A DNA stretch of 64,000 nucleotides. It comes from Ferruginibacter sp. (GTDB lineage Bacteria; Bacteroidota; Bacteroidia; Chitinophagales; Chitinophagaceae). Shown piece after piece: positions 1,161 to 25,289 of this stretch. The notes below the pieces were generated by a model. It had not been told where the DNA came from and searched no databases. It was given only the letters and a program-made list of their open reading frames with translations. Positions within the stretch are counted from its first letter, which is position 1. Each line of letters begins with the position of its first letter. A program made the position numbers and the translations under genes. The stretch is from positions 27,036 to 91,035 of the forward strand of contig JBDSEE010000120.1 of NCBI GenBank assembly GCA_039920245.1. The letters run 5' to 3'.

Positions 1161-1178
1161 TGTAGAAGCTTTTCCTCA
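1161..1178. promoter_or_regulatory. Palindromic candidate enhancer (UAS) TGTAGA-AGCTTT-TCCTCA
   Basis: Same 18-bp motif recurs at 6099, 15476, 19150 and 25272. Confidence 0.55.
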
Positions 1179-1398
1179 TGCTGTGTATTATGAATAGTTA
1201 AAAGCCAATACCAGTTCACGTTTCGGGCAATTAAAAAGAAAATAAGATTCAAAAGATGATGATTTCAGGAAAATGGAAGTGAGGTTTTATTAAGGATAGG
1301 ATGCCTGTTATATTTTTCCAAGAGTTATTTATTCCAGGTTTCGCTGCTTTAGGAATGATTATTAATCATTTGTTCATTTTAGGTTGCGCAAATAAATA

Positions 1399-1413
1399 AG
1401 GCATAGAACTTTC
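1399..1413 (+). promoter_or_regulatory. Sigma54-like element (AGGCATAGAACTTTC) upstream of the topoisomerase IB-Ku-LigD operon
   Basis: Nearly identical to AGGCATAAAAATTTC at 6177; the -12 is non-canonical. Confidence 0.4.
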
Positions 1414-1465
1414 TATACAAAAAAGAAAAGTTTTTAAAAAGCTGGCGCAATAATAAACTTGTAAT

Positions 1466-2554
1466 ATGACAACAACCGAAATAGTAGAAAGCCTGTCACC
1501 AAAAGCAATAGAGAAAATTGTGGATGATCCTGAAAAAACAGCCAGGGCAATAAAACTTGTTTATGTTAATGATGGCGATCCCGGAATTACCCGTGAAAAA
1601 AAGTGGAGCGGCTTCACATATTTTGATGGCGAAAATAAAGTAACCGATGAAGCGACCCTTGCCCGTATAAAAAGCCTTGTATTGCCTCCGGCATGGGAGG
1701 CTGTGTGGATATGTAAAAAAGAAAATGGTCATTTGCAGGCGACTGGTTTGGATATTAAAAAAAGAAAACAATACCGGTATCATCCTTCATGGAATGCATT
1801 ACGGAGTCATACAAAATTTTTTAGAATGCAGAAGTTCGGCACTTTGTTGCCAGCTATCCGTACACAACTGGAAAAAGATCTTTCGCTCCAGGATATGCCA
1901 CAGGACAAGATTATGGCTGCTATTGTTTCGCTGATGGAACGAACCAATATAAGAGTAGGAAATAATGTTTATGAAAAATTATACGGTTCCTTCGGGCTCA
2001 CGACTTTGAAAAACAAGCATGTTGCTGTTAACGGCACCGCTATTCAATTTTCTTTCAAAGGCAAGAAGGGCGTGCAACATAGCATTGAACTCAAAAGTAA
2101 AAGACTGGCTAATATCGTAAACAAATGCCGGGAGATACCAGGAAAAGAATTATTTCAATATATAGATGAAAACGGCGAAAAGCATGCGGTGGATTCTGGT
2201 ATGGTAAATGAATACATTAAAAATATATGTGAGGAGAATTTCACTGCAAAGGATTTTAGAACTTGGGCTGGCACCGTTCATGCATTTTTAGCTTTAAAAG
2301 AAAAAGGATTTGCAGAAACAGAAACAGGCGCAAAAAAAATAATGGTGGAAGCATTGGATAGCGTGGCAAAAAACCTGGGAAACACCCGAACAGTTTGTAA
2401 AAAATATTATGTGCATCCAAGCCTGATGAATTTATACGAGACTGGGGACCTGAAAAAATATTTTAATCAATTGGATGAAATTGAGACTACTCAAGAAAAG
2501 ACCGGCCTTACTTCGGAAGAAAAAATTATCATGAAAATATTAGAAAAACACTAA
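1466..2554 (+). CDS. DNA topoisomerase IB (bacterial, poxvirus-like)
   Basis: RKQYRYH, IRVGN, KDFRTW, LGNT and VCKKYYVHP catalytic motifs; 362 aa. Confidence 0.95.
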   Translation: MTTTEIVESLSPKAIEKIVDDPEKTARAIKLVYVNDGDPGITREKKWSGFTYFDGENKVTDEATLARIKSLVLPPAWEAVWICKKENGHLQATGLDIKKRKQYRYHPSWNALRSHTKFFRMQKFGTLLPAIRTQLEKDLSLQDMPQDKIMAAIVSLMERTNIRVGNNVYEKLYGSFGLTTLKNKHVAVNGTAIQFSFKGKKGVQHSIELKSKRLANIVNKCREIPGKELFQYIDENGEKHAVDSGMVNEYIKNICEENFTAKDFRTWAGTVHAFLALKEKGFAETETGAKKIMVEALDSVAKNLGNTRTVCKKYYVHPSLMNLYETGDLKKYFNQLDEIETTQEKTGLTSEEKIIMKILEKH

Positions 2555-2565
2555 CCATTAACAGC

Positions 2566-2817
2566 ATGGAAAACATAGAAATAACATTAAACTACCGGGG
2601 AGCAGATATCGATATCTTAATAACAGCAGAAGAATATTGTAAGGGCAATATTTATCCCGTAGAAATGAATGGCAGATATGCATGTACGATTTGTATGGAT
2701 GAAAATGAAGATTGGACCATCATGCGTGAAGCAGATGGAACCACACCGTTTATAGAAGGAGATCTTTTAAAACCGCTCTTGAAAAAACTGCAATATGAAT
2801 TACAATATGCAGCTTAA
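2566..2817 (+). CDS. Small acidic hypothetical protein between topoisomerase IB and Ku
   Basis: 83-aa ORF with 11- and 10-nt gaps to its neighbours; resembles the C-terminal half of ORF 24659-25144. Confidence 0.75.
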   Translation: MENIEITLNYRGADIDILITAEEYCKGNIYPVEMNGRYACTICMDENEDWTIMREADGTTPFIEGDLLKPLLKKLQYELQYAA

Positions 2818-2827
2818 ATAAAATATT

Positions 2828-3604
2828 ATGAGACCATTATGGACAGGTGCAATAGGTTTTGGACTGGTTAATATACCCGTCAAACTTTATAGCGCTACAG
2901 AATCAAGCAATCTTGACCTGGATATGCTGGACAAAAAAGATCACAGCAATATAAAATTTAAAAGGGTAAATGAAAAGACAGGCCAGGAAGTAAAATTTGA
3001 AAATATTGTAAAGGGATACATGATCGGCAGCAAGTATGTAGTGCTGGATGACAAGGATTTTGAAAAAGCAAATGCCGTAAAAACAAAGCTGATAGAAATA
3101 AGTGATTTTGTAAATGAATCAGAGATTGACAGTATGTACTATGAAACACCTTATTACCTGGCTCCCGACAAATCCGGAATGAGGCCGTATGCATTATTGA
3201 GGGAAGCATTGATAAAAACAAAAAAAGCCGGCGTGGCAAGTTTTGTAATGAGAAACAGAGAGAACCTGGCGATATTAAGAGCGTCGGGCGATGCAATAGT
3301 TCTTAACAGGATAAGATTTGAGGAAGAGATACGGGAAACAAAAGATCTGGAACTTCCCAAAAAGACGGAAGTGAAACCTGCAGAATTAAAAATGGCTGTA
3401 AGCCTTATTGATCAACTGACAGCGAAATTTGATATTTCAAAATATAAAGATACCTATACCGAAGCGCTGTTGAAACTGATACAGGCAAAATCGAAAGGTA
3501 AAAAAATTGCAACGCCTACTTTAAAGGTTGTGCACAGCAAAACGCAGGATCTTATGGAACAATTAAAAGCAAGTCTTACAACAAAGCGTAAAAAAGCATC
3601 CTGA
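2828..3604 (+). CDS. ku: Non-homologous end-joining protein Ku
   Basis: [31 protein letters not shown] and [10 protein letters not shown] motifs with a basic tail. Confidence 0.97.
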
Positions 3605-3606
3605 TC

Positions 3607-4224
3607 ATGAGCCTGGCAAAGTATAAAGAAAAAAGAAATTTTAAAGTTACCCCGGAGCCATCTTCGGTTAAGAAAGTTGCGACAAAAAAACTTTCTTTTG
3701 TTGTGCAAAGGCACAAAGCTTCGCACCTGCATTATGATTTCAGGTTAGAGATGGATGGGGTTCTTAAAAGTTGGGCGGTACCAAAAGGTCCCTCTTTAAA
3801 TCCTGCTGATAAGCGGCTCGCCATGATGGTAGAGGATCATCCATACGATTATAAAGATTTTACAGGCATTATTCCTGAAGGCAATTACGGCGCAGGCATC
3901 GTGGAGATTTGGGACAAAGGAAGTTATACGGCATTAACAGACGATGCTAAAGCAGATGATGAAAAATTATTGAAAGCCGGTCTGAAAGCAGGCAGCCTGA
4001 AATTTGTATTGAAAGGTAAAAAGCTAAAAGGCGAGTTTGCCCTTGTAAAACTAAAGAACAATAAGGCAGGAGATAATTCCTGGTTACTGATAAAACATAA
4101 CGATGCATTCGCCGTGCAGGATGAATATAATAGTGAAGAAGAAACTCCCGCCAGTTCTCCCATAAATAAATGGCTTGCTGAAAATAAGAAACCTGCAAAA
4201 AAAAAAGCTTCTTCACAGCAGTAA
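3607..4224 (+). CDS. ligD: LigD 3'-phosphoesterase (PE) domain protein, possibly the N-terminal part of a frameshifted LigD
   Basis: FVVQRHKASHLHYDFRLE, LKSWAVPKGPS, EDHPYDY and GNYGAG. Confidence 0.93.
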   Translation: MSLAKYKEKRNFKVTPEPSSVKKVATKKLSFVVQRHKASHLHYDFRLEMDGVLKSWAVPKGPSLNPADKRLAMMVEDHPYDYKDFTGIIPEGNYGAGIVEIWDKGSYTALTDDAKADDEKLLKAGLKAGSLKFVLKGKKLKGEFALVKLKNNKAGDNSWLLIKHNDAFAVQDEYNSEEETPASSPINKWLAENKKPAKKKASSQQ

Positions 4225-4259
4225 AATCTAGTCGGAAACTTACATCATATATTAAACCA

Positions 4260-6095
4260 ATGCTTGCCAAAGAAACGGACAAGCCATTTGATAATGAAGA
4301 ATGGATATATGAAATAAAATGGGATGGTTATCGAGCCATAAGTGAAATAAATAATAATGCCGTAAAACTCTATTCACGCAATGGCAATGATTTTTCTGGC
4401 AAGTTCCCTCTTATAATAAATGATTTAAAAAAAATAAAACATGATGCTGTTTTAGATGGAGAAATCGTTGTGCTAAATGAAGAAGGTTTTCCTGATTTTC
4501 AGAAAATACAGGATTATGAATCAAACACCCATTTTCCCCTGATCTATAATGTATTTGATCTATTGTCGCTGGACGGAAATGATTTGTACCATATCCCATT
4601 AATTGAACGTAAGGCCCTCTTAGAAAAATTACTGAAGAAAAATGAAGTAATCAAATACTCAGATCATGTAACGGGAAACGGTAAAATCTTTTTTGATGCG
4701 GCTGCGGAAAAAAACCTGGAAGGAATAATGGCTAAAAAAGCTGACAGTGAATATCATCCGGGTGCAAGGTCAAATGATTGGTTAAAAATAAAAAACCATA
4801 AAACTGCAGATGTAATTATAGCAGGTTATACTGAGCCAGGCGGATCGAGGGAATATTTTGGGTCGCTTGTATTGGGCATGATGAAAAAGGGTAAATTGGT
4901 TTATGCCGGCAATGCAGGAACTGGCTATAATGAAAAGACACTTGCAGACCTTCATGGGTTGATGCAGAAAAGAATTATCAAGCAGTCTCCATTCACCGAA
5001 AAAATTCCAGGCAGTCAATACATCAGCTGGGTAAAACCGGAGTTGGTTTGCGAAGTTAAATTCACTGATTGGACAAAAGATGAAAAATTAAGGCACCCTG
5101 TTTTTTTGCAATTAAGAAATGATAAACCCATAAAAGAAACTGACATGGAAAAGCAAAAGCCCGTTAAGCTAAAGAAAGAGCCATCATCTGAATTAATCAT
5201 TACGCAAGGGAAAATAAAAGTACCTGTTTCCAATCCGGGCAAATTATATTGGCCTGAAGAAGGGATTACAAAAAAAATGCTGGTGGAATATTACCAGGAG
5301 ATTGCTTCATATATTTTACCATTTTTGAAAAACAGGCCGCAGTCATTAAAGCGAAATCCGAACGGAATAATTGACAATGGATTCTTTCATAAAGATGCAG
5401 GAGAAAAAGCACCTGAATTTGTAAAATCATTTCCTGTGCAATCAGGATCAGCTGATAAAATAATTGACTATATCATTTGTAATGATAAAGCAACTCTTGC
5501 ATATTTAAATAATCTTGGTTGTATAGAACTTAATCCATGGCATAGCACGATTAAATATCCTGGCAAACCAGATTACATGATTATTGATATTGATCCTTCT
5601 GATGAAAATACTTTTGACCAGGTAATTGAGTCTGCTTTAGTATTTAAAAAATATTTAGACAAGGCTGGTGTGAAATCATTTTGTAAAACTTCGGGCGCAA
5701 CCGGCTTACATATTTATGTTCCGATGGCACACAAATATGAATATGAAGAAGTAAAGAATTTTGCACAGATTTTATGCATGATCGTAAGTGAAGAACTTTC
5801 TTCTTTCACCACAGTTGTTAGAAATTTAAAGAAGCGTGGTAATGATAAAATCTATTTAGATTTTCTACAAAACAGGAGCGGGCAAACCATATCTTCAGTT
5901 TATAGCGTGAGGCCAAAACCGGGTGCAACTGTTTCAATGCCGTTGGCCTGGAAAGATATAAAAGAAGGACTTTCCCCTCAGCAATTTACCATACATAATG
6001 CAGCAAAAATTATCAAAAAAAGACCTGATATTTTTAAGGGTATCCTGGGTCCTGGAGTTAGCATCAATAACTGCCTGAAAAAGCTAAATGCCTGA
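4260..6095 (+). CDS. ligD: DNA ligase D, ligase plus primase-polymerase domains
   Basis: EIKWDGYR adenylation motif, EGIMAK, WLKIK, then a POL domain (SNPGKLYWP, IDIDP, KTSGATGLHIY). The frame is open upstream to 4188. Confidence 0.96.
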   Translation: MLAKETDKPFDNEEWIYEIKWDGYRAISEINNNAVKLYSRNGNDFSGKFPLIINDLKKIKHDAVLDGEIVVLNEEGFPDFQKIQDYESNTHFPLIYNVFDLLSLDGNDLYHIPLIERKALLEKLLKKNEVIKYSDHVTGNGKIFFDAAAEKNLEGIMAKKADSEYHPGARSNDWLKIKNHKTADVIIAGYTEPGGSREYFGSLVLGMMKKGKLVYAGNAGTGYNEKTLADLHGLMQKRIIKQSPFTEKIPGSQYISWVKPELVCEVKFTDWTKDEKLRHPVFLQLRNDKPIKETDMEKQKPVKLKKEPSSELIITQGKIKVPVSNPGKLYWPEEGITKKMLVEYYQEIASYILPFLKNRPQSLKRNPNGIIDNGFFHKDAGEKAPEFVKSFPVQSGSADKIIDYIICNDKATLAYLNNLGCIELNPWHSTIKYPGKPDYMIIDIDPSDENTFDQVIESALVFKKYLDKAGVKSFCKTSGATGLHIYVPMAHKYEYEEVKNFAQILCMIVSEELSSFTTVVRNLKKRGNDKIYLDFLQNRSGQTISSVYSVRPKPGATVSMPLAWKDIKEGLSPQQFTIHNAAKIIKKRPDIFKGILGPGVSINNCLKKLNA

Positions 6096-6098
6096 CAC

Positions 6099-6176: not shown

Positions 6177-6191
6177 AGGCATAAAAATTTC
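6177..6191 (+). promoter_or_regulatory. Sigma54-like element (AGGCATAAAAATTTC) upstream of tamB
   Basis: 60 nt before the ATG at 6251. Confidence 0.4.
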
Positions 6192-6250
6192 TTATTATTA
6201 CACAACCTGTTGAATATTAATCATTGAGCAATTCACAGGGATTCATTTTC

Positions 6251-9200
6251 ATGGCAAATACGAAGCTTATTTTACGCAAGACCGGAAGGGTGTTTTTATA
6301 CATCCTGTTATGCGTTTTCATGCTTGTACTCCTTGCATATATTTTTATAAATCTCCCTGTTGGTAAAAGAGTAGTTAGAAATAAGGTTCAAAGTTTTTTG
6401 CAGGAAAAACTGCATACAAAGGTGGCGATTGGCAGTGTTGATTACAGCCTTCCTCAATGGCTAAAGATAAAAGGAGTTTATATTGAAGATCAGCAAAAAG
6501 ATACCCTTGCTTATGGTGAAGAAATTTCTGCCGATCTTGATATGATCAAACTTATGTTTGGTTACACAGACATTGAGAAGTTATATTTTAAAAATATTTT
6601 GTTGAAAGTTAATCGGGGTGAAAATGATACTTCTTTCAATTATAGATTTGTGTTGGATGCATTCACGGGAAATAAGTCGACTACATCAATTCCTGATACA
6701 GCTGCTCTAAAACTTACATTAAATCACTTGGTCTTTGATAATGTTGCCTTGCATTTTTCTGACGAAAAAGTAGGAACAAATTTCAAAGCAAGTATAAAAG
6801 TGCTTAATGCAACGCTCACAAGATTTCAACCCGATCGTGTTCAATTTGGCCTGAGTGATTTTTATGCAAAGGGTATAAATTTCAAAATGAATTCATACAA
6901 GGAAATTATTCCAGACACAACTGTAATTGCTCCTCCAGATTCGATGACCTTACCGGCTTATGCCTTGTTTATTACGGCAAAGAAATTTAACCTGCAGGAT
7001 GTAAATGTTTCTGTAAGCAATTCTGTAAATGGAATGGATTATGGAAACAACATCAACCACCTTGGATTTAGTAATGTCATTTTTAGTTTGGGTCAGTCCA
7101 TTGCTATTGCAGATAGTGCAGTACTTGATAGTTCAATAATAAAGCTGGCGCTGCCCGTCACTGCAAAAAATAATAAAACAGATACGGTTGTTAGTCAGCC
7201 ATGGCTTATTAAACTTGGCCAATTAAATATGCGACAGAATGAAATTGCGTTTGATGATATTAATGAACCCAAGAAGGGTGGCTTCGATGCATTTCATATC
7301 GATCTGCAAAATGTAAATACGGATATTCAATCTTTTCTCTACAGTTACGATACTTTGAAAGGTACGGTACGTAATTTTTCCTTTAAAGAAAAAAATGGCT
7401 TTAGTGTAGACAGCCTGCATGTAAATTATTTACAAACTCCTACTCAACTTACTGCTACCGAATTATATTTTAAAACTCCCCAGACCCTGTTGCGTGATAA
7501 AATTGAATTAACTTTTGATACGGCATCTGCAACCAAAGCATTAAGAACAAAAAACAGTATTGTAGCAGCCACCATAAGTAATAGTGTAATTGCATTTAAT
7601 GACCTGTACCAGGTGATGCCATCCATAAGATCCAGTTTTCCACCTTCAAAATTTGCAAACCTTAGTCTTCATATCAACACAGAACTAAGAGGAAATCTTG
7701 AACATATTTATTTGCCATACCTGCAACTAAGCGGCCTTACAGGTAGCAGCCTGAGTGCCCACGGAAATCTATACAATGTTTCAGAACCCCGTTTCTTTTC
7801 TTACGATCTTATTATTGAGAAAAGCAGGATAACAAAATCTGACCTGCTCAAGTTTATACCGGCAGGAAATGCAGCTGCCATGCAAAAGATCCCTTCCGTA
7901 TTTTCATTAAGTGGTCATATAACCGGCAACTCGAATAACGTTGTTGCTGATGTAAAAACATCGGCCCAAGGTGCATCATTCAATGGCAGGATTGCTTTAC
8001 ATAATATTTCAAATCCTGCATTACTTACCTACGATTTGGATATCAGGTCGGCAGATATCAATAAGAATTTTATCATGGCATTTTTGCCTCCCGGATCAAT
8101 TCCTTCGCAAATAAACCTCCCGGAAAATATTAAGGCAACCGGTACTATAAAAGCAACGGATAACAGCGTAACGTTGAACACCAGGTTAAATACAAGTTAT
8201 GGCAAGGCAAATGTAAAAGGCTACCTGAATAATTATAAAAACCCTGAGCTGGTAAAATACGATCTTGATATGAATCTCGCAGGCTTTAATGTAGGAAGGC
8301 TGATAAGACAGGATAGTATACTTGGATTAGTGAGCGGTCATGTAAATGCAAAAGGCAGGGGATTCAATTATAAAACTATGGTATCGGATATTAATGGAAA
8401 CCTGGATGCATTGACATACAAAGGCTATACATACCATGATATTTTATTTACTTCCAGCTTTAAAAACGGAATTATTAATAGCGAAGGAAAAGTAAATGAT
8501 GATAATCTTCGCATGAAATATAATTTGCTGGCAAATGTACAAGGTGAATATCCTACAGTAGATGCTAAGGTAAGAATTGATACAGTACAGCTACAGGCAT
8601 TGCATTTTTACTCAGACACTTTGAATGCATCTTTTACTGCAGACATAAAAATGAATGATACGAGGCCAAGAAACCTTGATCTGCATGTAATCATCGACAG
8701 CACATTCCTTCAGTTAGGCACAGAAAAATCATTCTTGGATAGCATGGTGCTTGTGGGTACAAGCAGTGCAGGAATTGATGATATCAGGTTCACAGCTCCG
8801 TTTGCTGAAATTCATGCAAATGGTGCATTTGATTATGATAAGGTAGGCACATCGCTGGCACAATACATTAATAATTATTATAAATTCTCAAATACAAAAC
8901 CCGTTACTATTCCGGATCAGCAGTTAACTTTCGAGGCCAATATTCAACGCCACCCCATTGTATTGTATGTTGTACCTGGTTTGTACGATTATAAGGATAT
9001 AAATATCAAGGGAAGTTATTCATCAGCATTGCAGGATAGTGCATTGAATTTTACAGCTTCGCTGCCTTATGTTTTTTATGGCGATTACATTTTACGATCA
9101 GGAAGAATAAATGTTGCATCCAGGAATGAAAAATTGAATTACGATTTAAAATTGGACACGTTAAGTTTTTCTAAGTACACCTTTTATGGGAATTCGGTTA

Positions 9201-11479
9201 AAGGATATGCAGCGCATGATAGTCTTGCTATAAATGCATTAACACAGGATAATAAAGGAGTAGATTGGTTTGGGGCAAATGCATCAGTTGCAATTAAAGG
9301 AGATGAATACAACTTCAGGCTAAATGATAATTTATTATTGAACTATGAACGATGGAACGTAGCGCCGGATAACTTGATAAGTTATTCTCCACGTGGTTGG
9401 CTGGTAAACAATTTCAGGATGAATAGTGACACTGCAAGTATTACTATCAATAGCCGGCAGCAAGTGCCCAATAGCCCTATAGATGTTAAGATAGATAACT
9501 TCAACCTGAAAAGTTTAAGTGCATTGATAAGTAATGATACTCTATACACAAGCGGCATCATGGATGCCACATTAGTCGTGGATGAATTAGATAAGAGCAT
9601 ACCGGCATTTACAGGAAATGCAGAAATTACAAACTTTGCTATTAACCAACAACCTATTGGAAATATAAAAGCACTATTACAGAAGAAATCTGAAAATACA
9701 ATTACAGGTAGTATAACCCTTACCGGAAATGGGAACGATGTAGAAGCAACGGGTGATTATTTTCTAAATAATCCGGCTGAAGATTTTCGGGCAAATATAA
9801 ATATGCGAAAGATGAACCTTAAGACCCTCCAGAGTTTTACAGCGGGTTTAATACAAGATGCTTCAGGTTCTATCAATGGTAATATTGTATTGAATGGCAA
9901 GTTCTCAGAACCACATTGGCAGGGTCAATTGAATTTTGATACTGCCCGTTTTACTTTATCAGAGTATGGTTCTGTATTGCGATTAAACCAGCAGCACATC
10001 AACCTAAATTACCCCGATATCAGTTTTGATAATTTTATTATCCTGGATTCATTATCTCATGAGGCAAAGCTTAATGGAAAAATTACCGCACTTTCTTTAA
10101 ATGAGTATGACCTGAACCTTGATGTAAATGCTAAAAATTTCATTGTAATAAATACACCAAATGCCATCAACAACGAGATATATGGTTATGCTGCTGTAGA
10201 TGCAGATATGAGGATAACCGGAAATTCAATTTCTCCAAACCTGGATGGAAACGTATTAGTGAATGATGGAAGCAAAATAACGATTGTAATACCAGAACAA
10301 AGTTTTAATAAAGATGCAGCAAAAGCAGTGGTGCGTTTTATTGACAGGGATACCTTTGCGATAGACCCGCCTAAAACTGCATTTCAACCTGTAGCAGACC
10401 AGGCAGTAAATTTTGCACGGTACCTCAATTATAATTTTAATATCGAGGTACATAAGAATTCTACGTTTACAATTATAGTAGATCCTGCTACTGGAGATAA
10501 AGTGGTAGCACAGGGTGATGCACAATTAAATGCAGGCGTTGATCCCGGTGGTAATCTTGTACTGGCAGGAAATTATGAGCTGGATAAGGGAACCTATGAA
10601 TTAAACTACCAGTTCCTGCAACGAAAATTTAAATTGATGAAAGGTAGCAGTATTTCATTTGCTGGCGCACCTATGAATGCAAGAGTAAATATTACTGCTG
10701 AATACACAGCGCTAACTTCTTCCCGTGATCTATTAAGCAATGAAGTAACCGATGTGAGTCCAAGACTTGCCAACTCCTTTAACCAGAAAATTCCCTTCAG
10801 GGTTATTTTATATTTAACTGGCGAGCTTAGCAGGCCGGATATTAATTTTAATATTGAGTTGCCTGAAGAAAGCAACCTGCTCACCGGTGACCTGAGAACT
10901 ACTATAGAAAACAAGCTTGCCCAGTTGAGGAGTGACCAGGCAGCAACAAATAAGCAGGTATTTTCTTTGTTGCTTTTAGGCCGTTTTGTAGGTGAACAAA
11001 GCAGCGACTTTTTTAAAGGAAACGGAAGCGATTTCTCTGACCTTGCCCGGCAAAGTGTAAGCGAGTTTTTGTCAGCTGCATTAAATGAAATTGCCGCCAA
11101 TCTTTTTAAAGGAATAGATGTAGACCTGAATTTAAATACTTATCGTGATTTCAGTAATGGTGGAAATGCACAGCGTACGGATCTAAACGTTACCTTAAGC
11201 AAATCTTTCCTTGATGACAGACTTGTTATTAGTGTGGGTACAAACTTTGGGGTTGAAGGACAGGATCCTGCAAGAAAAGCAGGTACAAATAGTAATAGCT
11301 TTATGCCAGATGTTGCTGTTGCTTATAAACTTACCAAGGATGGCCGATATATGATAAGAGCCTATAGAAAAAATCAGTTTGAAGTCTTGTTAGATGGATA
11401 TGTGGTGGAAACCGGTATTTCATTCATAGTTACTATGGACTATGACAAATTCCATGAACTGTTCAGGAGAAAAAAATAA
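6251..11479 (+). CDS. tamB: Translocation/assembly module TamB (AsmA-like) protein
   Basis: About 1740 aa with an N-terminal TM anchor, repetitive beta-rich body and DUF490-like C-terminus (GNYELDKGTYELNY...YKLTKDGRYMIRAYR). ATG 6251 preferred over TTG 6224. Confidence 0.9.
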   Translation: MANTKLILRKTGRVFLYILLCVFMLVLLAYIFINLPVGKRVVRNKVQSFLQEKLHTKVAIGSVDYSLPQWLKIKGVYIEDQQKDTLAYGEEISADLDMIKLMFGYTDIEKLYFKNILLKVNRGENDTSFNYRFVLDAFTGNKSTTSIPDTAALKLTLNHLVFDNVALHFSDEKVGTNFKASIKVLNATLTRFQPDRVQFGLSDFYAKGINFKMNSYKEIIPDTTVIAPPDSMTLPAYALFITAKKFNLQDVNVSVSNSVNGMDYGNNINHLGFSNVIFSLGQSIAIADSAVLDSSIIKLALPVTAKNNKTDTVVSQPWLIKLGQLNMRQNEIAFDDINEPKKGGFDAFHIDLQNVNTDIQSFLYSYDTLKGTVRNFSFKEKNGFSVDSLHVNYLQTPTQLTATELYFKTPQTLLRDKIELTFDTASATKALRTKNSIVAATISNSVIAFNDLYQVMPSIRSSFPPSKFANLSLHINTELRGNLEHIYLPYLQLSGLTGSSLSAHGNLYNVSEPRFFSYDLIIEKSRITKSDLLKFIPAGNAAAMQKIPSVFSLSGHITGNSNNVVADVKTSAQGASFNGRIALHNISNPALLTYDLDIRSADINKNFIMAFLPPGSIPSQINLPENIKATGTIKATDNSVTLNTRLNTSYGKANVKGYLNNYKNPELVKYDLDMNLAGFNVGRLIRQDSILGLVSGHVNAKGRGFNYKTMVSDINGNLDALTYKGYTYHDILFTSSFKNGIINSEGKVNDDNLRMKYNLLANVQGEYPTVDAKVRIDTVQLQALHFYSDTLNASFTADIKMNDTRPRNLDLHVIIDSTFLQLGTEKSFLDSMVLVGTSSAGIDDIRFTAPFAEIHANGAFDYDKVGTSLAQYINNYYKFSNTKPVTIPDQQLTFEANIQRHPIVLYVVPGLYDYKDINIKGSYSSALQDSALNFTASLPYVFYGDYILRSGRINVASRNEKLNYDLKLDTLSFSKYTFYGNSVKGYAAHDSLAINALTQDNKGVDWFGANASVAIKGDEYNFRLNDNLLLNYERWNVAPDNLISYSPRGWLVNNFRMNSDTASITINSRQQVPNSPIDVKIDNFNLKSLSALISNDTLYTSGIMDATLVVDELDKSIPAFTGNAEITNFAINQQPIGNIKALLQKKSENTITGSITLTGNGNDVEATGDYFLNNPAEDFRANINMRKMNLKTLQSFTAGLIQDASGSINGNIVLNGKFSEPHWQGQLNFDTARFTLSEYGSVLRLNQQHINLNYPDISFDNFIILDSLSHEAKLNGKITALSLNEYDLNLDVNAKNFIVINTPNAINNEIYGYAAVDADMRITGNSISPNLDGNVLVNDGSKITIVIPEQSFNKDAAKAVVRFIDRDTFAIDPPKTAFQPVADQAVNFARYLNYNFNIEVHKNSTFTIIVDPATGDKVVAQGDAQLNAGVDPGGNLVLAGNYELDKGTYELNYQFLQRKFKLMKGSSISFAGAPMNARVNITAEYTALTSSRDLLSNEVTDVSPRLANSFNQKIPFRVILYLTGELSRPDINFNIELPEESNLLTGDLRTTIENKLAQLRSDQAATNKQVFSLLLLGRFVGEQSSDFFKGNGSDFSDLARQSVSEFLSAALNEIAANLFKGIDVDLNLNTYRDFSNGGNAQRTDLNVTLSKSFLDDRLVISVGTNFGVEGQDPARKAGTNSNSFMPDVAVAYKLTKDGRYMIRAYRKNQFEVLLDGYVVETGISFIVTMDYDKFHELFRRKK

Positions 11480-11480
11480 A

Positions 11481-15365: not shown

Positions 15366-15409
15366 AGTTTTAATTTTTTTTATTTTATAAATAGTGTATA
15401 GATGTTATT

Positions 15410-15424
15410 GCTAAAATGCTGCCA
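15410..15424 (-). promoter_or_regulatory. Sigma54 -24/-12 promoter (TGGCAGCATTTTAGC)
   Basis: Canonical GG-N10-GC spacing, 45 nt upstream of the ytxH-like ATG. Confidence 0.65.
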
Positions 15425-15556: not shown

Positions 15557-15571
15557 TGGCATGTTTATTTG
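15557..15571 (+). promoter_or_regulatory. Sigma54-like element (TGGCATGTTTATTTG)
   Basis: 58 nt upstream of the ATG at 15629; non-canonical -12. Confidence 0.35.
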
Positions 15572-15628
15572 ATTTCATTCCATATCATTTTTCCAGGCTC
15601 ATTTTGGAAACTCCTAAAAAAATATTTA

Positions 15629-18260: not shown

Positions 18261-18503
18261 TCAATTAAGCAATGTACCTTTTAATCCATAATTACTTGCT
18301 TCTATTGCATAAAGAACTACATTTTTTTCTGGCTCGGTCCTGTTCTCATAGCGATATGCTTCCGTTATTTCCAGTTCATGAGTCTTGAAATTCAAGTCTT
18401 TTTCCGGGCAATGGAAATAGTTATTTTTTTTTATAAAATGGTGGGTATATCCTTCATTTTGTAAATGTTCCAATGCATTTTCTATACTGGTGTAATCGGT
18501 CAT
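18261..18503 (-). CDS. Small Bacteroidota-family hypothetical protein, short form (paralog of 22795-23148)
   Basis: MTDYTSIENALEHLQNEGYT...YRYENRTEPEKNVVLYAIE...GLKGTLLN, ending in TGA TAA TAA. Start set at ATG 18503. Confidence 0.7.
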   Translation of the reverse strand: MTDYTSIENALEHLQNEGYTHHFIKKNNYFHCPEKDLNFKTHELEITEAYRYENRTEPEKNVVLYAIEASNYGLKGTLLN

Positions 18504-18546
18504 ACTTCTATAATTAAAGAGAAGCCCAGCCTCGATAAATTTACTA

Positions 18547-19002
18547 TCAGGCGAAACGGGCATTATTTAGCATTTTAATTTTCATAAAAGAAATTCTCAA
18601 GGCGTTTAACTGGTACAGCATTATATTTCTAAGGTTTGCAAGAGGTAGGTATTCATTTAAAAGATCATTATAAGCATTAATAATGCTGTTTTCAGAATTG
18701 GTGCAAATATTAGTAAGCTCATTCCCTTTGCCGGGAATATATGATGGGCTGGTATTTTCAAATCTTTCGAAGTAATCCATGAGGATATCTGTATCAAGCC
18801 GGTATGGAATACCGTAGGTTTTAAGTTGCGCAGTGATTTCATCTGCATATTGAATGCTTTCTGCTGATAAGCCATATAGAGCTGTTCGAAGATTACAATC
18901 TTCAACTTCTTCTGCTACAATTTCAAATGCAGCCTTATTACTGCATAAAAATTTTAGAAGTCCGCATAACTTATCAGAAACGCTGTTGTTTAAAACTTCC
19001 AT
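18547..19002 (-). CDS. Divergent ferritin-like four-helix bundle (DUF2383/PA2169-like)
   Basis: AFEIVAEEVEDCNLRTAL and SENSIINAYNDLL helical pattern. Confidence 0.6.
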   Translation of the reverse strand: MEVLNNSVSDKLCGLLKFLCSNKAAFEIVAEEVEDCNLRTALYGLSAESIQYADEITAQLKTYGIPYRLDTDILMDYFERFENTSPSYIPGKGNELTNICTNSENSIINAYNDLLNEYLPLANLRNIMLYQLNALRISFMKIKMLNNARFA

Positions 19003-19064
19003 GTGGAATGGGGGAATTTATAGTTTACATATTCAATGGCAATCACTCTCCACTAAGATTCAAT

Positions 19065-19079
19065 GAATAAACTATGCCA
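19065..19079 (-). promoter_or_regulatory. Sigma54-like element (TGGCATAGTTTATTC)
   Basis: 63 nt upstream of the ATG at 19002. Confidence 0.4.
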
Positions 19080-19179: not shown

Positions 19180-19584
19180 CTAATTTAGTAGCTGTTCTAC
19201 AGTTTTATAAATAACGTCCCTGGTAAAAGGTTTACCAATAAAATAGTCGGCACCTGCTTTCATTGCCTGGTTTCTGTCAGCGGCTGTGTCATGTGCAGTA
19301 ATCATAACAATTTTTACAGTTGGATAGTTGCTCTTGATAAACTGAATAAAGTTCATTCCCTGTCCATCAGGAAGGTGGTTATCAAGAAAAATTATTCCTG
19401 GTGTTTCGTTCTTCAATGCTACAGCAGCGTTAGATAGTGTAGTTACGTACTCGGCTTCTAAATTTTTTTGCTTTAAAAGGGTACTTAACAGATAGCATAT
19501 ATCCGTTTCGTCATCTATAATTAAGACTTTCAAAATATCATCTTTTATATAAGTGTGGGATTTTGTTGTTTCATTAGTTTTCAT
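19180..19584 (-). CDS. Single-domain response regulator (CheY-like receiver)
   Basis: VLIIDDE, IFLDNHLPDG, MITAH and FIGKPF. Confidence 0.93.
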   Translation of the reverse strand: MKTNETTKSHTYIKDDILKVLIIDDETDICYLLSTLLKQKNLEAEYVTTLSNAAVALKNETPGIIFLDNHLPDGQGMNFIQFIKSNYPTVKIVMITAHDTAADRNQAMKAGADYFIGKPFTRDVIYKTVEQLLN

Positions 19585-19597
19585 AAACTATAAAAAG

Positions 19598-19612
19598 TCA
19601 ATTTTATTGCCA
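19598..19612 (-). promoter_or_regulatory. Sigma54-like element (TGGCAATAAAATTGA)
   Basis: GG-N10-GA, only 14 nt from the ATG at 19584, so the leader would be very short. Confidence 0.45.
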
Positions 19613-19856
19613 ACGACATTTTTATAAATTTATAAATTATAGATATATCTTTATTCGGGTAAATTTAACAAAAAGCATACCCTGTCCAATGTCTGTATTA
19701 TATTGAACTTCAAACTTTAAACAATCTTCGTTACTTGTTATTAGGTAAAAGACGCTTTAAAATATTTACCCGTAAATATGAAAAAAGTAAAAAATTTTAC
19801 GTGATGGGAATCTTGATTGAGGAAAATATGACAGGTGATGTGAGGAATTTGTTACA

Positions 19857-19871
19857 TGGTACAATTATAGC
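19857..19871 (+). promoter_or_regulatory. Sigma54 -24/-12 promoter (TGGTACAATTATAGC)
   Basis: Canonical GG-N10-GC, 25 nt upstream of the yihY-like ATG; likely also drives the NtrC-type gene. Confidence 0.6.
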
Positions 19872-19895
19872 AATCAATGCATTGATTGGTTAAGA

Positions 19896-20854: not shown

Positions 20855-22303
20855 ATGAAGAAAAAGGTACTTATTATAGATGATGATCTGGATATGTGTA
20901 CACTTTTAAGTCGCTTTCTTACCCGTAATGGATACCAGGTTGACTCGGCACATTCAGGCGCAAAAGGGATTTTAAAATTTAAAGAAGAAAATTTTGATAT
21001 CGTGATATGCGATTATCGCCTGGGAGATAAAGAAGGCAAGGATGTACTCCAGGAAATTAAAGCTATTTCGCCACGAACTATTGTATTAATAATCACAGGA
21101 TATTCAGATATCAAAACAGCTGTAGATGTTATTAAAATGGGTGCATATGATTATATAACAAAGCCATTGGTGCCAGATGAAGTACTGACAGTTTTGAATA
21201 ATGCGCTGAATAGTGTTAATGACGGTGGTTCTGCATCTAATGCCGCATTAAATGCAAATATTAAAGGCATTACTTCAAAACTTTCCGGTGCAAAACATCT
21301 CACTATAAACAATGAGTTTCTGGTAGGAGAAGCGGGAACAACAAAGGATCTGTATAACCAGATAGAAATAGTTGCTCCAACTAATTACAGCATCATTTTA
21401 TATGGAGAGAGCGGCACCGGTAAAGAAGTTATTGCAAAAACAATCCATAGCCTTAGTGACCGGAGAGATAAACCATTTGTGGCAATGGATTGCGGTACGC
21501 TATCCAAAGAACTTTCGGGTAGCGAACTTTTTGGTCATGTGAAAGGAGCATTTACCGGAGCGCTTACAGACAAAGAAGGACATTTTGAACTTGCGAATGG
21601 AGGTACCTTATTTTTAGACGAAGTAGCAAATCTTTCTTATGAAATTCAGGCATCTCTGTTAAGGGTGATACAAGAACGAAAATTTAAAAGAGTTGGTGGC
21701 AATAAAGAAATGCCGGTGGATGTTCGCATCATTGTAGCCTCAAATGAAAACCTTCAGGAAGCTTACAGGAAAGGCAAGTTCAGGGAAGATCTTTATCATA
21801 GGTTCAATGAATTCTCCATTAATCTTCCGCCACTAAGAGAAAGAAAAAAAGACATTCCATTGTTTGCAAATTTCTTTTTGCAAAAAGCTAAGGCAGAATT
21901 AAACCGGGATATAGATGATTTTGATAATGAAGTAATGCAAATGTTTACAAGCTATTCATGGCCTGGAAACCTACGGGAGTTTAGGAATGTAGTTCGCAGG
22001 GCTGTTCTTCTTACACAGGAAGGAAAGATCAGTGCAAAAACACTTCCCTGGGAAATTACCAATCCATCAGATTCGCCGCTGTCTCATACACCTCACCCCG
22101 GTTCCATAGCCGAGGAACAACCCGTAATTTTTGTTAAAAAAGACTATGACCTTAAAGATGCTGCCAGCAAAGCAGAATACGAAGCCATCATGAATGTCCT
22201 GAAAGAAGTGAATTTTAATAAAACCAAGGCAGCAGAAATATTAAAGATCGACCGTAAAACACTTTATAATAAAATAAAAAGTTTTGAAGAATCGAATAAC
22301 TAG
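20855..22303 (+). CDS. Sigma54-dependent response regulator (REC-AAA+-Fis HTH, NtrC family)
   Basis: REC domain, GESGTGKE, intact GAFTGA, LFLDEV, WPGNLRE and a C-terminal KAAEILKIDRKTLYNK helix-turn-helix. Confidence 0.96.
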   Translation: MKKKVLIIDDDLDMCTLLSRFLTRNGYQVDSAHSGAKGILKFKEENFDIVICDYRLGDKEGKDVLQEIKAISPRTIVLIITGYSDIKTAVDVIKMGAYDYITKPLVPDEVLTVLNNALNSVNDGGSASNAALNANIKGITSKLSGAKHLTINNEFLVGEAGTTKDLYNQIEIVAPTNYSIILYGESGTGKEVIAKTIHSLSDRRDKPFVAMDCGTLSKELSGSELFGHVKGAFTGALTDKEGHFELANGGTLFLDEVANLSYEIQASLLRVIQERKFKRVGGNKEMPVDVRIIVASNENLQEAYRKGKFREDLYHRFNEFSINLPPLRERKKDIPLFANFFLQKAKAELNRDIDDFDNEVMQMFTSYSWPGNLREFRNVVRRAVLLTQEGKISAKTLPWEITNPSDSPLSHTPHPGSIAEEQPVIFVKKDYDLKDAASKAEYEAIMNVLKEVNFNKTKAAEILKIDRKTLYNKIKSFEESNN

Positions 22304-22465: not shown

Positions 22466-22794
22466 AAGGAAAAATGTTATTGCGTTGAGATCCAATAATT
22501 TCTTTCATCATATTGCAGACAAGGTTGTATTATATCTGCAATCAATGCGGGTAAAAATTAATTGCTACAGTTTAAATTCATCAGTATGGTTTACCGCCTG
22601 TAAATTAGGATCTACCATTTTTTTTATTTGTGTAATCAAAGATGGTCCTTTACTGCTTTTAGGAGTTGTGTGCTCTTAATTTCTTATTTACAGCTATATT
22701 AAAATTTCGGGAAAACCATTACATAAAAAGCGGTATAAATTTGGATAATAAAGCGAAGTAACCCCGATTTCAGAACCAGATAAAATTATAAGTT

Positions 22795-23148
22795 ATGTCA
22801 AATACTTCTCATGATGAAATGGATACTCTAAGTACGGTTATGGAAAAACTGAGGCTTAAAAAACAAGACAATGAATTTCGAATGCTGGAAAAAGGATTTG
22901 GTAGCGGGAATGGAAAATATTATCAGCCCAACGAACTAAAAATAATTCGCACCTATCGTTTTGAAGGAGACTCAAATCCTGCAGATAATAGTATTCTTTA
23001 CCTTATCGAAGCAAACGATGGTAAAATAGGATATAGTATCGATGCCTATGGTGTATATAGTAACAACGATGATGAGCGATATGATGATTTTATCAGGAAA
23101 ATTCCTATGGAAGAAAGAGATGAGCAACAGATCTTTGGTGAAAATTAA
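22795..23148 (+). CDS. Conserved Bacteroidota hypothetical protein (YRFEGxSNP...DAYG family)
   Basis: TYRFEGDSNPADNSILYLIE...GYSIDAYGVYS; paralog of 18261-18503. Confidence 0.8.
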   Translation: MSNTSHDEMDTLSTVMEKLRLKKQDNEFRMLEKGFGSGNGKYYQPNELKIIRTYRFEGDSNPADNSILYLIEANDGKIGYSIDAYGVYSNNDDERYDDFIRKIPMEERDEQQIFGEN

Positions 23149-23219
23149 CATGGGGTTTAGCAAGATTTTATAGATACGTAAATTGCCAGTACCTTTTAAG
23201 TGGATAGAAATTAAGCAAT

Positions 23220-24674
23220 ATGCAAGCAACTGATTGGGCTTTAAAGATTTTGATAATAGATGATGATGAAGATGATTTTTTTATTACCAGCGAATATATC
23301 CGCAGCATACCAGGTAATAAATACAAGATAGACTGGTGTTATAAATATGATGAGGCGCTTGCACATGTACATAAGCGGCAATATGATCTTTACTTCGTAG
23401 ATTATCATCTTGGTGCCCGCACAGGATTGGATCTCATAAAAGAAGCTTCTCACCAAAAAATAGAAGAGCCTTTTATTTTGCTTACAGGAAAGGGTAATCA
23501 AAAAATTGACATTGAGGCTATGCAGGCAGGAGCTGTAGATTACCTGGTAAAATCTGAAATGGATACTGAAAAAATGGAACGCTGTATAAGGTATTCCATT
23601 GAGCGGTCCAGGGCAGTAAAGGCATTAAAGGCTAATGAACGAAAGTTTAGAAAGATATTTGAACGATCAACCGATGCAGTGTTTTTAATAGATGAAAATT
23701 TTGTTTTCGTTGATGTTAACGATGCTAGCACACGCCTGTTTGAATATAGCCATAAGGAAATTCATCAGCTGAACTTATTTACACTCTTTGATAATGAAGA
23801 GGACATTGCCTTAGTACAATCGCAATTGCAGTATTCAAAAGAGGTAGAAGATAAAGAAGTGCTGATGAAAACTAAAACGGGTAATTTAAGAAACTGCATA
23901 CTTTCTTTATCGCAGGAAAAAAATCAAAATGGGTTTTATTACCAGGGGTTAATACATGACATAACTAATCTGAAAAAAGCAGAGAAGGCAATGTTGCGTA
24001 CAGAAAAAAGAAATGTTGCAGACAGGCTTGTACACGTTCTGGCACATGAGGTTAGAAACCCCTTGAATAATATTAATCTGTCTCTTGAACAGTTATCCCC
24101 AGACGTTCTGGAATCTGACAATAGAATTTTCATAGACATCATACAACGGAATAGTAAGCGTATTGAGAGCCTGATAACGGAACTTTTAAATAGTAGCCGG
24201 CCTGCATCAATTAAGCTTGAAGAAATCTCTTTGCAATACATAGTAGAAGAAAGTTTAGCTGTGGCAAAAGACCGGCTTACGCTGAAGAAAATTTCATTAA
24301 TGAAAGTTTTCCCAGATGAAGATTATACCATAATGGCTGATGAAGAAAAACTGAAAATAGCAATACTTAATATTGTACTAAATGCTGTAGAGGCAATGAC
24401 AGAAGGGGATGGTAAACTTACGGTTGAAATAAGGAAGGAATCAGGAAAGATTCAGTTAACAATATCAGACAATGGGTGCGGTATAAGCGATGAAAATCTG
24501 CAGAGATTATTTGAGCCTTACTTTACAGCAAAAAGAAATGGTATGGGCCTGGGCCTGGCTACTACTATTAATATTTTGCAATCCCATAAAGCAGAAGTAG
24601 AAGTTAAATCTAAACTTGATGAAGGAACAAGCTTTATTTTAAGCTTTTTTGAAACAGATCAAATGAGCGAGTAA
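23220..24674 (+). CDS. Hybrid sensor histidine kinase (REC-PAS-HisKA-HATPase)
   Basis: ILIIDDDEDD REC, a PAS domain, LAHEVRNPL H-box, NAVEA and GMGLGLA. Confidence 0.95.
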   Translation: MQATDWALKILIIDDDEDDFFITSEYIRSIPGNKYKIDWCYKYDEALAHVHKRQYDLYFVDYHLGARTGLDLIKEASHQKIEEPFILLTGKGNQKIDIEAMQAGAVDYLVKSEMDTEKMERCIRYSIERSRAVKALKANERKFRKIFERSTDAVFLIDENFVFVDVNDASTRLFEYSHKEIHQLNLFTLFDNEEDIALVQSQLQYSKEVEDKEVLMKTKTGNLRNCILSLSQEKNQNGFYYQGLIHDITNLKKAEKAMLRTEKRNVADRLVHVLAHEVRNPLNNINLSLEQLSPDVLESDNRIFIDIIQRNSKRIESLITELLNSSRPASIKLEEISLQYIVEESLAVAKDRLTLKKISLMKVFPDEDYTIMADEEKLKIAILNIVLNAVEAMTEGDGKLTVEIRKESGKIQLTISDNGCGISDENLQRLFEPYFTAKRNGMGLGLATTINILQSHKAEVEVKSKLDEGTSFILSFFETDQMSE

Positions 24675-25144
24675 AGCGGCAATACTTCTACCACATGCTG
24701 AATAAATTTTGAATCCAAATTTTGAATATTCATTGAGCTGTTACCCATGATCTGCCATTCTTCATTTTCCATTTCTACCAGTGTGTATAAGTACTTTTTA
24801 TTTGAGTTATATATTTCGTACATCTTGTGATTTCCTTTTAGAAATCCAACAAATCCAAAAGATACTAATTTGCCCTGCATATGTTGTTTATGCCAGGTTA
24901 GCATTTTTGGTACGTGTACAGGCTGGCGCATAAACGGCCGGATACCTGATCCTATCATTTGTGCAAGCTCGGAAAACCCAAGATCTTCCTCAATCCATTT
25001 ACCTGTTTCCACATCTGTGAAAAATATATTTTCGTAACCATTCTCAAAAAATACCTTATACATACAATGATGTCTGTTAAAGATTTCTTCAAACCACGCA
25101 CGGGTTTCTATTTCCCCCATCTTGATTTTTAAAACTTTGTTCAT
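24659..25144 (-). CDS. Hypothetical protein, apparently two tandem small beta-meander/helix units
   Basis: 161-aa ORF; the C-terminal half resembles ORF 2566-2817. Confidence 0.7.
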   Translation of the reverse strand: MNKVLKIKMGEIETRAWFEEIFNRHHCMYKVFFENGYENIFFTDVETGKWIEEDLGFSELAQMIGSGIRPFMRQPVHVPKMLTWHKQHMQGKLVSFGFVGFLKGNHKMYEIYNSNKKYLYTLVEMENEEWQIMGNSSMNIQNLDSKFIQHVVEVLPLYSLI

Positions 25145-25166
25145 ATAATGGTTTATTAAAAATATT

Positions 25167-25181
25167 TCACAAATCCTGCCA
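25167..25181 (-). promoter_or_regulatory. Sigma54-like element (TGGCAGGATTTGTGA)
   Basis: GG-N10-GA, 23 nt upstream of the ATG at 25144. Confidence 0.5.
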
Positions 25182-25271
25182 ATAAATAGTTATAAAATTT
25201 TGTGTATTTCTTGTTTTTACAACCCAATTTTTCAGGATTTTTATTATAAATAGTTACTTATTTCCTTTGTT

Positions 25272-25289
25272 TGTAGAATTAATTTCCCA
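25272..25289. promoter_or_regulatory. Candidate enhancer TGTAGA-ATTAAT-TTCCCA
   Basis: Lies between divergent sigma54-like boxes; two mismatches in the right arm. Confidence 0.45.

Follow-up and report, generated by a model that had tools for sequence, protein, structure and literature searches.

The closest described counterparts of the element analyzed in this work are the upstream activating sequences (UAS) of NtrC, which read TGCACC-N5-GGTGCA, and those of NifA, which read TGT-N10-ACA. The element is an 18-bp dyad that recurs in a stretch of 64,000 nucleotides (the window, positions 27036-91035 of contig C120) of a Ferruginibacter genome (Chitinophagaceae; assembly of 3.6 Mb, 38% G+C, 221 contigs), and the same window carries, at 20855-22303, the gene of an NtrC-type activator. 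We suggest that the dyad is probably the helically phased UAS of this local activator. As in the NtrC and NifA systems, the dyad ends in TG...CA, its putative binder is the Fis-type helix-turn-helix (HTH) of a REC-AAA+-HTH activator, it lies upstream of putative -24/-12 promoters with a short-range dependence on the helix face, it is often common to divergent promoters, and putative autoregulatory sites occur at the gene of the regulator itself. Unlike them, it has a sequence and spacing of its own (TGnGGAA-N4-TTCCnCA, that is TG-N14-CA), it occurs as one dyad per promoter and not as tandem sites, and its distance is rather short, the dyad centre lying about 75-150 bp upstream of the inferred start; unlike those of NtrC, its predicted targets concern stress and dormancy and not nitrogen metabolism.

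Within the Bacteroidota, a sigma-54 (SM4) class of -24/-12 promoters has been mapped by transcription-start sequencing in Flavobacterium psychrophilum (Guerin et al. 2021, PMC9723704), where these promoters drive stress and protein-quality-control genes and where no enhancer sequence was assigned to any activator. The two genomes are alike in having one sigma-54 and three activators (PMC9723704), but they belong to different classes of the phylum, and the F. psychrophilum set comprises chaperones, Lon and gliding genes, whereas that considered here comprises YtxH, Dps, CsbD, Ku and LigD. Our literature searches found no description of the motif or of the regulon, the SM4 promoter class being the nearest (PMC9723704); the kind of element is well known, and the motif sequence and the regulon appear to be undescribed.

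A preliminary description of the window had reported five such 18-mers, one in each of five intergenic regions that also contain a -24/-12-type box. All five were recovered at the positions it had given, and each of the five regions does hold at least one box of the GG-N10 type. They are listed below with their scores in a weight matrix built from foreign sites alone (hereafter, G000 is the genome under study, other G numbers are further genomes of the genus, L numbers are loci with activator orthologues and C numbers are contigs of G000).

1161-1178: dyad 1, TGTAGAAGCTTTTCCTCA, between the PNPOx-like gene (minus strand) and the TopIB-Ku-LigD operon (plus strand); 15.8 bits
6099-6116: dyad 2, TGTGGAATTATGTCCACA, just past the LigD stop codon and upstream of the gene for a 1751-aa protein; 19.6 bits
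15476-15493: dyad 3, TGAGTAATTATTTCTACA, common to two divergent promoters; 18.5 bits
19150-19167: dyad 4, TGAGGAAATATTTCTACT, flanked by the receiver gene (its 3' end) and the h151 operon; 17.2 bits
25272-25289: dyad 5, TGTAGAATTAATTTCCCA, common to h161 (minus strand) and a FopS-like small RNA (plus strand); 20.2 bits

The consensus originally assigned to these sites, TGWRGA-N6-TCYWCA, stood in part, being exact at 1161 and 6099 and failing at one or two positions in the other three; likewise, the supposed palindrome is indeed a dyad of two half-sites, but an imperfect one, with a perfect 7+7 palindrome in only 7 of 98 related sites. The exact pattern occurs twice in the window against 0.03 expected, and six times in the whole genome (3.6 Mb) against about four according to our composition estimate; it shows no enrichment genome-wide, and a weight matrix was needed. 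A relaxed pattern gave 14 matches in the window, ten of them within the first 25 kb, against 3.7 in shuffled sequence. The original consensus is partly too tight and partly too loose, and a better one is TGnGGAAwwwwTTCCnCA, the profile of 98 sites scoring at least 14 bits in 80 orthologous loci, in which conservation is confined to exactly 18 bp and the flanks are flat. In the matrix rebuilt from foreign sites alone, the five window sites rank 2, 4, 6, 10 and 13 over the 3.6 Mb of G000 and represent five of its nine intergenic matches of at least 14 bits. An unbiased enumeration of exact 4- and 5-mer palindromes (spacer 0-14) in the 80 loci missed the motif, because its conserved positions are non-contiguous; coding conservation and composition dominated its output. 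The two halves of the 98 sites do not covary, the Watson-Crick complementarity at variable positions being that expected for independent halves, and this fits a dimeric protein reading two half-sites. The predicted folds are weak for four of the five window sites (fold z-scores from -2.2 to +0.8), and the site at 6099, which a loose scan calls terminator-like, has the sole 6-bp stem of the set, without a T-run. A hairpin or intrinsic terminator was rejected on these grounds (no covariation, weak stems, no T-run), and a mobile repeat was rejected because the flanks show no conservation.

Orthologues of the activator (53-80% identity) were detected in 14 of the 24 other genomes of the genus searched, a search that scored part of the candidates, and despite rearrangement they adjoin the same genes, namely those for the receiver, YihY, h117, the AI-2E transporter, the YtxH operon, the PNPOx-like protein and Ku/LigD/TopIB. 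The comparison was carried out on 80 further loci (1.35 Mb) around activator orthologues from Ferruginibacter, Terrimonas, Puia, Segetibacter, Ginsengibacter, Pedobacter and Mucilaginibacter, the identity of the activator being 73-81% in the Ferruginibacter loci and about 57% in those of Pedobacter and Mucilaginibacter. These loci contain 98 matrix matches of at least 14 bits, against three in block-shuffled sequence, and the dyad is about 12-fold enriched around activator orthologues relative to the G000 background of about 6 per Mb. In agreement with this, the pattern G.RGAA-N4-TTCY.C occurs 22 times in the intergenic DNA of the 80 loci and once in the 2.3-times-larger intergenic DNA of G000. 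The preliminary description had made its reading depend on conservation in orthologous promoters; the dyad is indeed found at the same place in other genomes, and it recurs in many of them before the genes for PNPOx-like, YtxH, h151, h161, RR134, YihY, h117, Dps, CsbD and YciE/F-like proteins. Over 61 genomes of the genus, the exact forward pattern is about four times as frequent as its reversed control, with coding-type matches (GAAGAA) adding noise.

The boxes that accompany the dyads in the window are the following, distances being measured from the dyad centre to the GG of the box.

1106-1121, minus strand: -24/-12-type box TGGTACATGCTTTGAA of the PNPOx-like gene, 50 bp from dyad 1
1399-1414, plus strand: candidate box AGGCATAGAACTTTCT of the operon TopIB-(acidic 83 aa)-Ku-LigD, 231 bp from dyad 1; the weakest link of the set
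6177-6192, plus strand: box AGGCATAAAAATTTCT of the 1751-aa/Omp85 pair, 71 bp from dyad 2
15409-15424, minus strand: box TGGCAGCATTTTAGCA of the YtxH operon, 62 bp from dyad 3
15557-15572, plus strand: box TGGCATGTTTATTTGA of the FAD oxidoreductase (DAO) gene, 74 bp from dyad 3
19064-19079, minus strand: box TGGCATAGTTTATTCA of the h151-h100-AI-2E operon, 81 bp from dyad 4
19597-19612, minus strand: box TGGCAATAAAATTGAC of the receiver gene RR134
19841-19872, plus strand: half-site TGAGGAA and abutting box TGGTACAATTATAGCA (19857-19872) of the yihY-activator operon; 9.8 bits as a dyad
22731-22746, plus strand: box-like CGGTATAAATTTGGAT before h117, conserved in G007 and G010, with no dyad near it in G000
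25166-25181, minus strand: box TGGCAGGATTTGTGAA of h161, 101 bp from dyad 5
25331-25346, plus strand: box TGGCATAAAAGATGAA of the small RNA gene, 52 bp from dyad 5

The seven distances on which the helical phasing had first been proposed (50, 52, 62, 71, 74, 81 and 101 bp) came out identical when recomputed from the coordinates. Taken alone, this post-hoc set corresponds by our estimate to p ~0.04, and the larger multi-genome set supports the phasing. Among the TGGYA elements within 180 bp of the 98 dyads, 160 face away from the dyad and 44 face it; over a range of 50-125 bp, the distances cluster at 51-52, 60-64, 73-76, 83-87, 93-96 and about 104 bp. The highest point of their periodogram is at 10.5-10.75 bp (R 0.39, nominal p 3e-8); the control in reverse orientation gave a flat curve. 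Because orthologous promoters inherit their spacing, the data were collapsed to unique family-distance pairs, in which (n = 39, noise boxes included) the period persists with R 0.39-0.48 and p from 2.5e-3 to 1e-4. The seven window distances lie within +1 to -3.4 bp of the phase set by the foreign genomes (about 52, 62.4, 72.9, 83.4, 93.9 and 104.4 bp). The YtxH promoter alone shows, in different genomes, distances of 51-52, 60-63, 73-74, 84, and 107 or 110 bp, so its spacer has been lengthened or shortened more than once, mostly by approximately full turns of the helix. As to the boxes themselves, the -24 element is a conserved and oriented TGGCA or TGGTA. Since many -12 elements lack GC, we infer the use of sigma-54 from the conserved -24 element, the spacing, the presence of rpoN and the -24/-12 promoters mapped in Flavobacterium (PMC9723704). 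A subclass of boxes carries TT(T)C and not TTGC at -12 (1399-1414, 6177-6192 and 19064-19079, with orthologues AGGCAT-N5-TTTCT and TGGCARAGTTTTTTC) and is conserved across genomes; it may be that sigma-54 tolerates TC at -12, or that these promoters are weaker and more activator-dependent.

The single promoters were also compared with their counterparts in the other genomes. The dyad of the PNPOx-like promoter is present in four out of four genomes; in G000, G007, G022 and L081 it stands 50-51 bp from a TTGGTAC-N5-TTGAA box, which reads TTGGTACAGGCTTTGAA in G007 and GTGGTACACCATTTGAA in G022, and in G013 the dyad is kept and the adjoining box is deviant. The box of the TopIB-Ku-LigD operon is conserved as AGGCAYA-N4-CTTTCT, and in the SDR-TopIB-Ku-LigD operon of L057/G013 a box of the same type, AGGCACAATACTTTCT, lies 72 bp from a 20.9-bit dyad. 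Upstream of the gene for the 1751-aa protein, G010 has CGGGGAAATTATTCCCCG at the position equivalent to dyad 2, and the box of this gene pair is kept as GGCATAATTTTTCTT in G010 and as TGGCATAATATTTCTT in G007. Orthologous dyads precede YtxH operons in more than 20 genomes, and in all the genomes examined the YtxH operon is preceded both by a dyad and by a TGGCAN-N5-TAG(A/C/T) box. The place of dyad 4, about 1.65-1.7 kb upstream of the activator gene, is occupied by a dyad in about 20 of the 80 loci; the orthologous boxes of the h151 operon, TGGCA[AG]AGTTTTTTC, are found 65-99 bp from this dyad, and the box of RR134 is conserved in G011, in G016b and in Puia and Terrimonas loci. Dyad 5 has its counterpart in G010, where TGTGTAAATAATTCTACA precedes the h161 gene, and for the orthologous h161 boxes, TGGCAGGTTTTATGT and TGGCAGGTTTTGTGC, the distance to the dyad is 104 or 124 bp. 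Finally, the h117 box lies in L066 at 94 bp from a 20.4-bit dyad.

The activator encoded at 20855-22303 (plus strand) is composed of a receiver domain (Response_reg, residues 5-114), an AAA+ sigma-54 interaction domain (PF00158, E = 2.4e-65) with an intact GAFTGA loop, which reads ELFGHVKGAFTGA, and a Fis-type HTH (HTH_8, residues 440-476). It falls below the NCBIfam equivalog cut-offs of its best match, AtoC (384 vs. 714 bits), and of ZraR (371 vs. 760) and NtrC (368 vs. 559) and is not an equivalog of any named NCBIfam activator (NtrC, AtoC, ZraR, LuxO, GlrR and others). G000 harbors one rpoN (a single Sigma54_DBD match, in a 493-aa open reading frame (ORF) of C179) and three sigma-54 activators including the local one. 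The second, at C75:4334-5572, has 412 aa with AAA+ and HTH only and no receiver domain, and the third, at C101:28585-29946, is a REC-AAA-HTH protein whose gene is followed by a 447-aa ORF. All full-length orthologues, at overall identities of 54-81%, share without change the recognition helix of the local HTH, IDRKTLYNK, from which those of the other two activators, ISERTLYRK and ITRTALYRR, differ. The linkage of the dyad to the activator gene itself extends across two families. In Puia, the activator gene is directly preceded by a dyad and a TTGGCAAGSCTTTAGA box that stand 51 bp apart; in about nine loci of Pedobacter (Sphingobacteriaceae), with almost no island synteny, the distance from the dyad to the start codon of the activator is about 70-85 bp; and in two loci of Mucilaginibacter, belonging to the same family, a variant dyad, TGTGTAAAAAATTACACA, is located about 90 bp before this start. 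The assignment of the dyad to this activator, advanced in the preliminary description, is therefore favored by the whole of the comparative data (conservation, enrichment, boxes, phasing, gene linkage and invariant helix); regulation through the dyad would be positive, in response to a putative inducing signal.

The yihY-activator promoter of G000 had been described as having TGAGGAA half-sites only, and both were found, at 19818 and, 23 bp downstream, at 19841. A 32-bp block in which the second half-site is fused to the -24 box (GRGGAATTTRTTRCA-TGGTAYAATTATMGCA) is conserved in G007 and G010, the remaining spacer not being conserved. This fusion may reflect autoregulation or, alternatively, an extended -24 element.

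Several observations weigh against the idea that the dyad is a sigma-54 enhancer of the local activator. The first concerns precisely the promoter of the activator gene, which in G000 has half-sites only. Moreover, the box of the TopIB-Ku-LigD operon is 231 bp away from the nearest dyad of G000, and some strong intergenic matches (C205:21555, C19:111084) have no box near them. The number of exact dyads fails to separate the genomes with a detected orthologue from those without one (2.4 vs. 1.9 per genome in the first 25, a noisy count). The -12 position reads T-(T/A)-(G/T)-(C/A/T), with the canonical GC in part of the set and often TTGA, TAGC or TTTC, and a loose box pattern applied to all upstream regions of G000 gave 20 sense and 14 antisense matches (about 1.4-fold). 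Lastly, the correction of the phasing statistics for common descent is partial. The loose sigma-54 box pattern alone, as a means of defining the sigma-54 regulon, was rejected as too noisy.

A different protein might bind the dyad as a real operator, that is, a Crp/Fnr-type or other dimer, one of the other sigma-54 activators or a small island protein such as h117, the local activator acting through another site or none; we regard this as unlikely. Phased sites at about -60 to -90 are, as is textbook knowledge, also typical of class I activators such as CRP, and some good dyads have no sigma-54-type box near them. However, operators of CRP and FNR have TG-N12-CA geometry over 16 bp (TGTGA-N6-TCACA or TTGAT-N4-ATCAA), whereas the motif has TG-N14-CA over 18 bp with a GGAA-N4-TTCC core, and the partner of the dyad is the outward-facing TGGYA box and not a TAnnTTTG sigma-A box. 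As for the other sigma-54 activators, the matrix scan of G000 found no high-scoring dyad near the C75 and C101 genes. The protein h117 has no known fold and, present in 35 of 85 loci, is the non-regulatory neighbor most conserved beside the activator, which might recommend it as the binder; nevertheless, the dyad of Pedobacter stays by the activator gene though h117 and almost all the other island genes are absent from the locus, and no further protein with a recognizable DNA-binding domain was found encoded in the island.

According to another hypothesis, the local activator does bind the dyad, but mainly as a repressor or on an anti-activation operator that keeps the genes off until phosphorylation, the TGGYA boxes not being sigma-54 promoters. 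We consider this very unlikely. It draws on the non-canonical -12 elements, on the yihY half-site abutting its box and on Pedobacter, where a conserved TAtaTTTAG element (TAT(A/T)TTTAGC) before the activator gene follows the dyad at about 13 nt in L093, L094, L097, L102, L104, L106, L109 and L111 (at about 9915-9990). This element resembles the sigma-A -7 box of Bacteroidota, and the arrangement suggests occlusion, that is, a sigma-A-type promoter overlapped by the operator and subject to autorepression, in contrast with the sigma-54-type layout of Puia (51 bp). Autorepression at its own gene is nevertheless compatible with activation elsewhere, as textbook accounts of classical NtrC show; the helically periodic distances of 50-125 bp between the dyad and an oriented box downstream fit activation by looping and not occlusion, and the GAFTGA loop of the activator is intact. 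In addition, -24/-12 promoters have been mapped experimentally in Flavobacterium (PMC9723704).

That the recurrence is due to chance, low-complexity AT-rich sequence, a dispersed repeat or terminator hairpins, as the lack of genome-wide enrichment of the exact pattern, the mismatches needed at three of the five sites and the terminator-like flag of 6099 just after a stop codon could insinuate, has a negligible probability and is refuted, as far as computation allows, by the 98 matches against three in shuffles of independent genomes, by the conserved position in orthologous promoters, by the unconserved flanks and by the weak folds and non-covarying halves.

If the dyad is the enhancer of the local activator, the following mechanism can be proposed. 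Phosphorylation of the activator would probably proceed via the hybrid kinase encoded next to it, the single-domain receiver acting as a branch or a sink; the phosphorylated protein would occupy the two half-sites as a dimer and give rise to the active oligomer, which would contact, through DNA looping, the sigma-54 RNA polymerase at a TGGYA-N6/7-T(T/A)(G/T)(C/A) promoter 50-125 bp away. Such a loop would be short, and the site should therefore lie on one helix face, hence distances stepping by about 10.5 bp. A single dyad would often serve two divergent promoters.

The gene families recurrent downstream of dyad-box pairs are YtxH, holin-X-like, Dps, DUF892/YciE-YciF-like ferritin and CsbD, together with a 50-aa lmo0937-like membrane protein, a cytoplasmic alpha-amylase, PNPOx/GSP26-like, h151, h161, h117, the receiver, yihY and the activator. 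The predicted regulon of G000 would include YtxH, holin-X-like and PNPOx/GSP26-like proteins, small membrane proteins, the AI-2E transporter, the giant secreted protein with its Omp85 partner and some FopS-like small RNAs; that of its relatives would add Dps, CsbD, the YciE/F-like ferritin, the cytoplasmic alpha-amylase and the activator. The regulon probably extends also to the end-joining operon TopIB-Ku-LigD, whose membership is weaker because of the 231 bp that separate its box from dyad 1 in G000. Judging from gene content, the regulon is most likely a general-stress, dormancy-type set of soil Bacteroidota, including the repair of DNA breaks.

The FopS-like small RNA deserves separate mention, since dyad 5 has among its predicted targets a multicopy RNA of the FopS/GibS type of Bacteroides. 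G000 has eight copies of it, and only in three (C163:2742, C19:91054 and window 25272-25420) is there a dyad, 64-81 nt upstream of the RNA core. Two of these three dyads were outside the training set of the first matrix, and the chance of this, calculated by us from the match rate of the matrix, is about 4e-5. In the C163 copy, the offset of TGGCATAAAAAATGCC from the RNA core equals that of the window box; in the C19:91054 copy the dyad is kept and there is no box at canonical spacing. Most copies lacking the dyad show, by eye, TAnnTTTG-like sigma-A -7 elements. Since only three copies have the dyad and most others look sigma-A-like, the paralogues would be wired to different regulators, a predicted division of paralogous small RNAs between sigma-A-type and enhancer-dependent control.

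The content of the predicted regulon overlaps with those of SigB in Bacillus and RpoS in Escherichia coli (YtxH, CsbD, GSP26/PNPOx-like, Dps, YciE/F-like), and Ku and LigD are stationary-phase genes in several bacteria. The proposed control is different, in that it would rely on sigma-54, a phosphorylated enhancer-binding protein and a defined enhancer, and not on a stress sigma factor of the sigma-70 family. To our knowledge, regulation in soil and freshwater Bacteroidota beyond Bacteroides and Flavobacterium is almost uncharted, and we know of no general stress regulator there. We can speculate that in Chitinophagaceae and Sphingobacteriaceae, which have no RpoS- or SigB-type sigma, sigma-54 with a single phosphorylation-controlled activator and the 18-bp enhancer might be the master switch of a general-stress, dormancy and desiccation program including Ku/LigD, Dps and a subset of FopS-like small RNAs. 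If so, the role of the SigB and RpoS regulons would be filled here by a functional analogue based on enhancer-dependent transcription. The 18-bp enhancer, its partner promoter and the putative cognate activator turn a vague stress island into a testable regulon, and the motif can be scanned over hundreds of genomes to predict which genes (end-joining, Dps, CsbD, YtxH, small RNAs) would be switched together. Furthermore, the variation of the YtxH promoter in steps of about one turn represents an unusually clean comparative case of face-of-helix constraint in enhancer-dependent promoters.

The genes of the window mentioned above are organized as follows.

601-1077, minus strand: PNPOx-like (GSP26-like) gene
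1466-6095, plus strand: operon for TopIB, an acidic 83-aa protein, Ku and a split LigD
6224-13772, plus strand: gene pair for a 1751-aa protein and its Omp85 partner
15365 down to 13882, minus strand: operon YtxH / holin-X-like / h130 / h106, the last two coding for unknowns
from GTG 15536 (longest ORF), plus strand: FAD oxidoreductase (DAO) gene
19002 down to 17073, minus strand: operon h151-h100-AI-2E transporter
19180-19584, minus strand: stand-alone receiver RR134
yihY followed by the NtrC-type activator gene (20855-22303), plus strand: one operon
22795-23148, plus strand: h117
23220-24674, plus strand: soluble hybrid kinase, REC-PAS-HisKA-HATPase
25144 down to 24659, minus strand: h161

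The hybrid kinase (23220-24674) is syntenic with the activator in 20 of the 85 loci scanned and is likely its signalling partner. The TGGCAT-N5-TTTGA box at 15557 falls within the longest FAD oxidoreductase ORF, the one beginning at GTG 15536; therefore, the real start of this gene is probably the in-frame ATG 15629, in agreement with the N-terminus of the L050 orthologue. The proteins h100 (18261-18563) and h117 (22795-23148), which matched no Pfam or NCBIfam family, resemble paralogues by eye, both having a C-terminal ...YR(F/Y)E...LY.IEA..G... motif; h117 is preceded by a CGGTAYAA-N3-TTGG box of its own. Lastly, the scan of the genome beyond the window, foreseen in the preliminary description, did reveal further intergenic dyads. 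The best-scoring one in G000, TGTGGATTTTTTTCCACA at C112:9928-9945, is accompanied by boxes: it is flanked on one side by a membrane protein and a DUF2383-like four-helix-bundle protein, encoded as a pair, with a box-like TGGCTT at 88 bp that is out of phase, and on the other side by a small exported protein with boxes at 40 and 51 bp.

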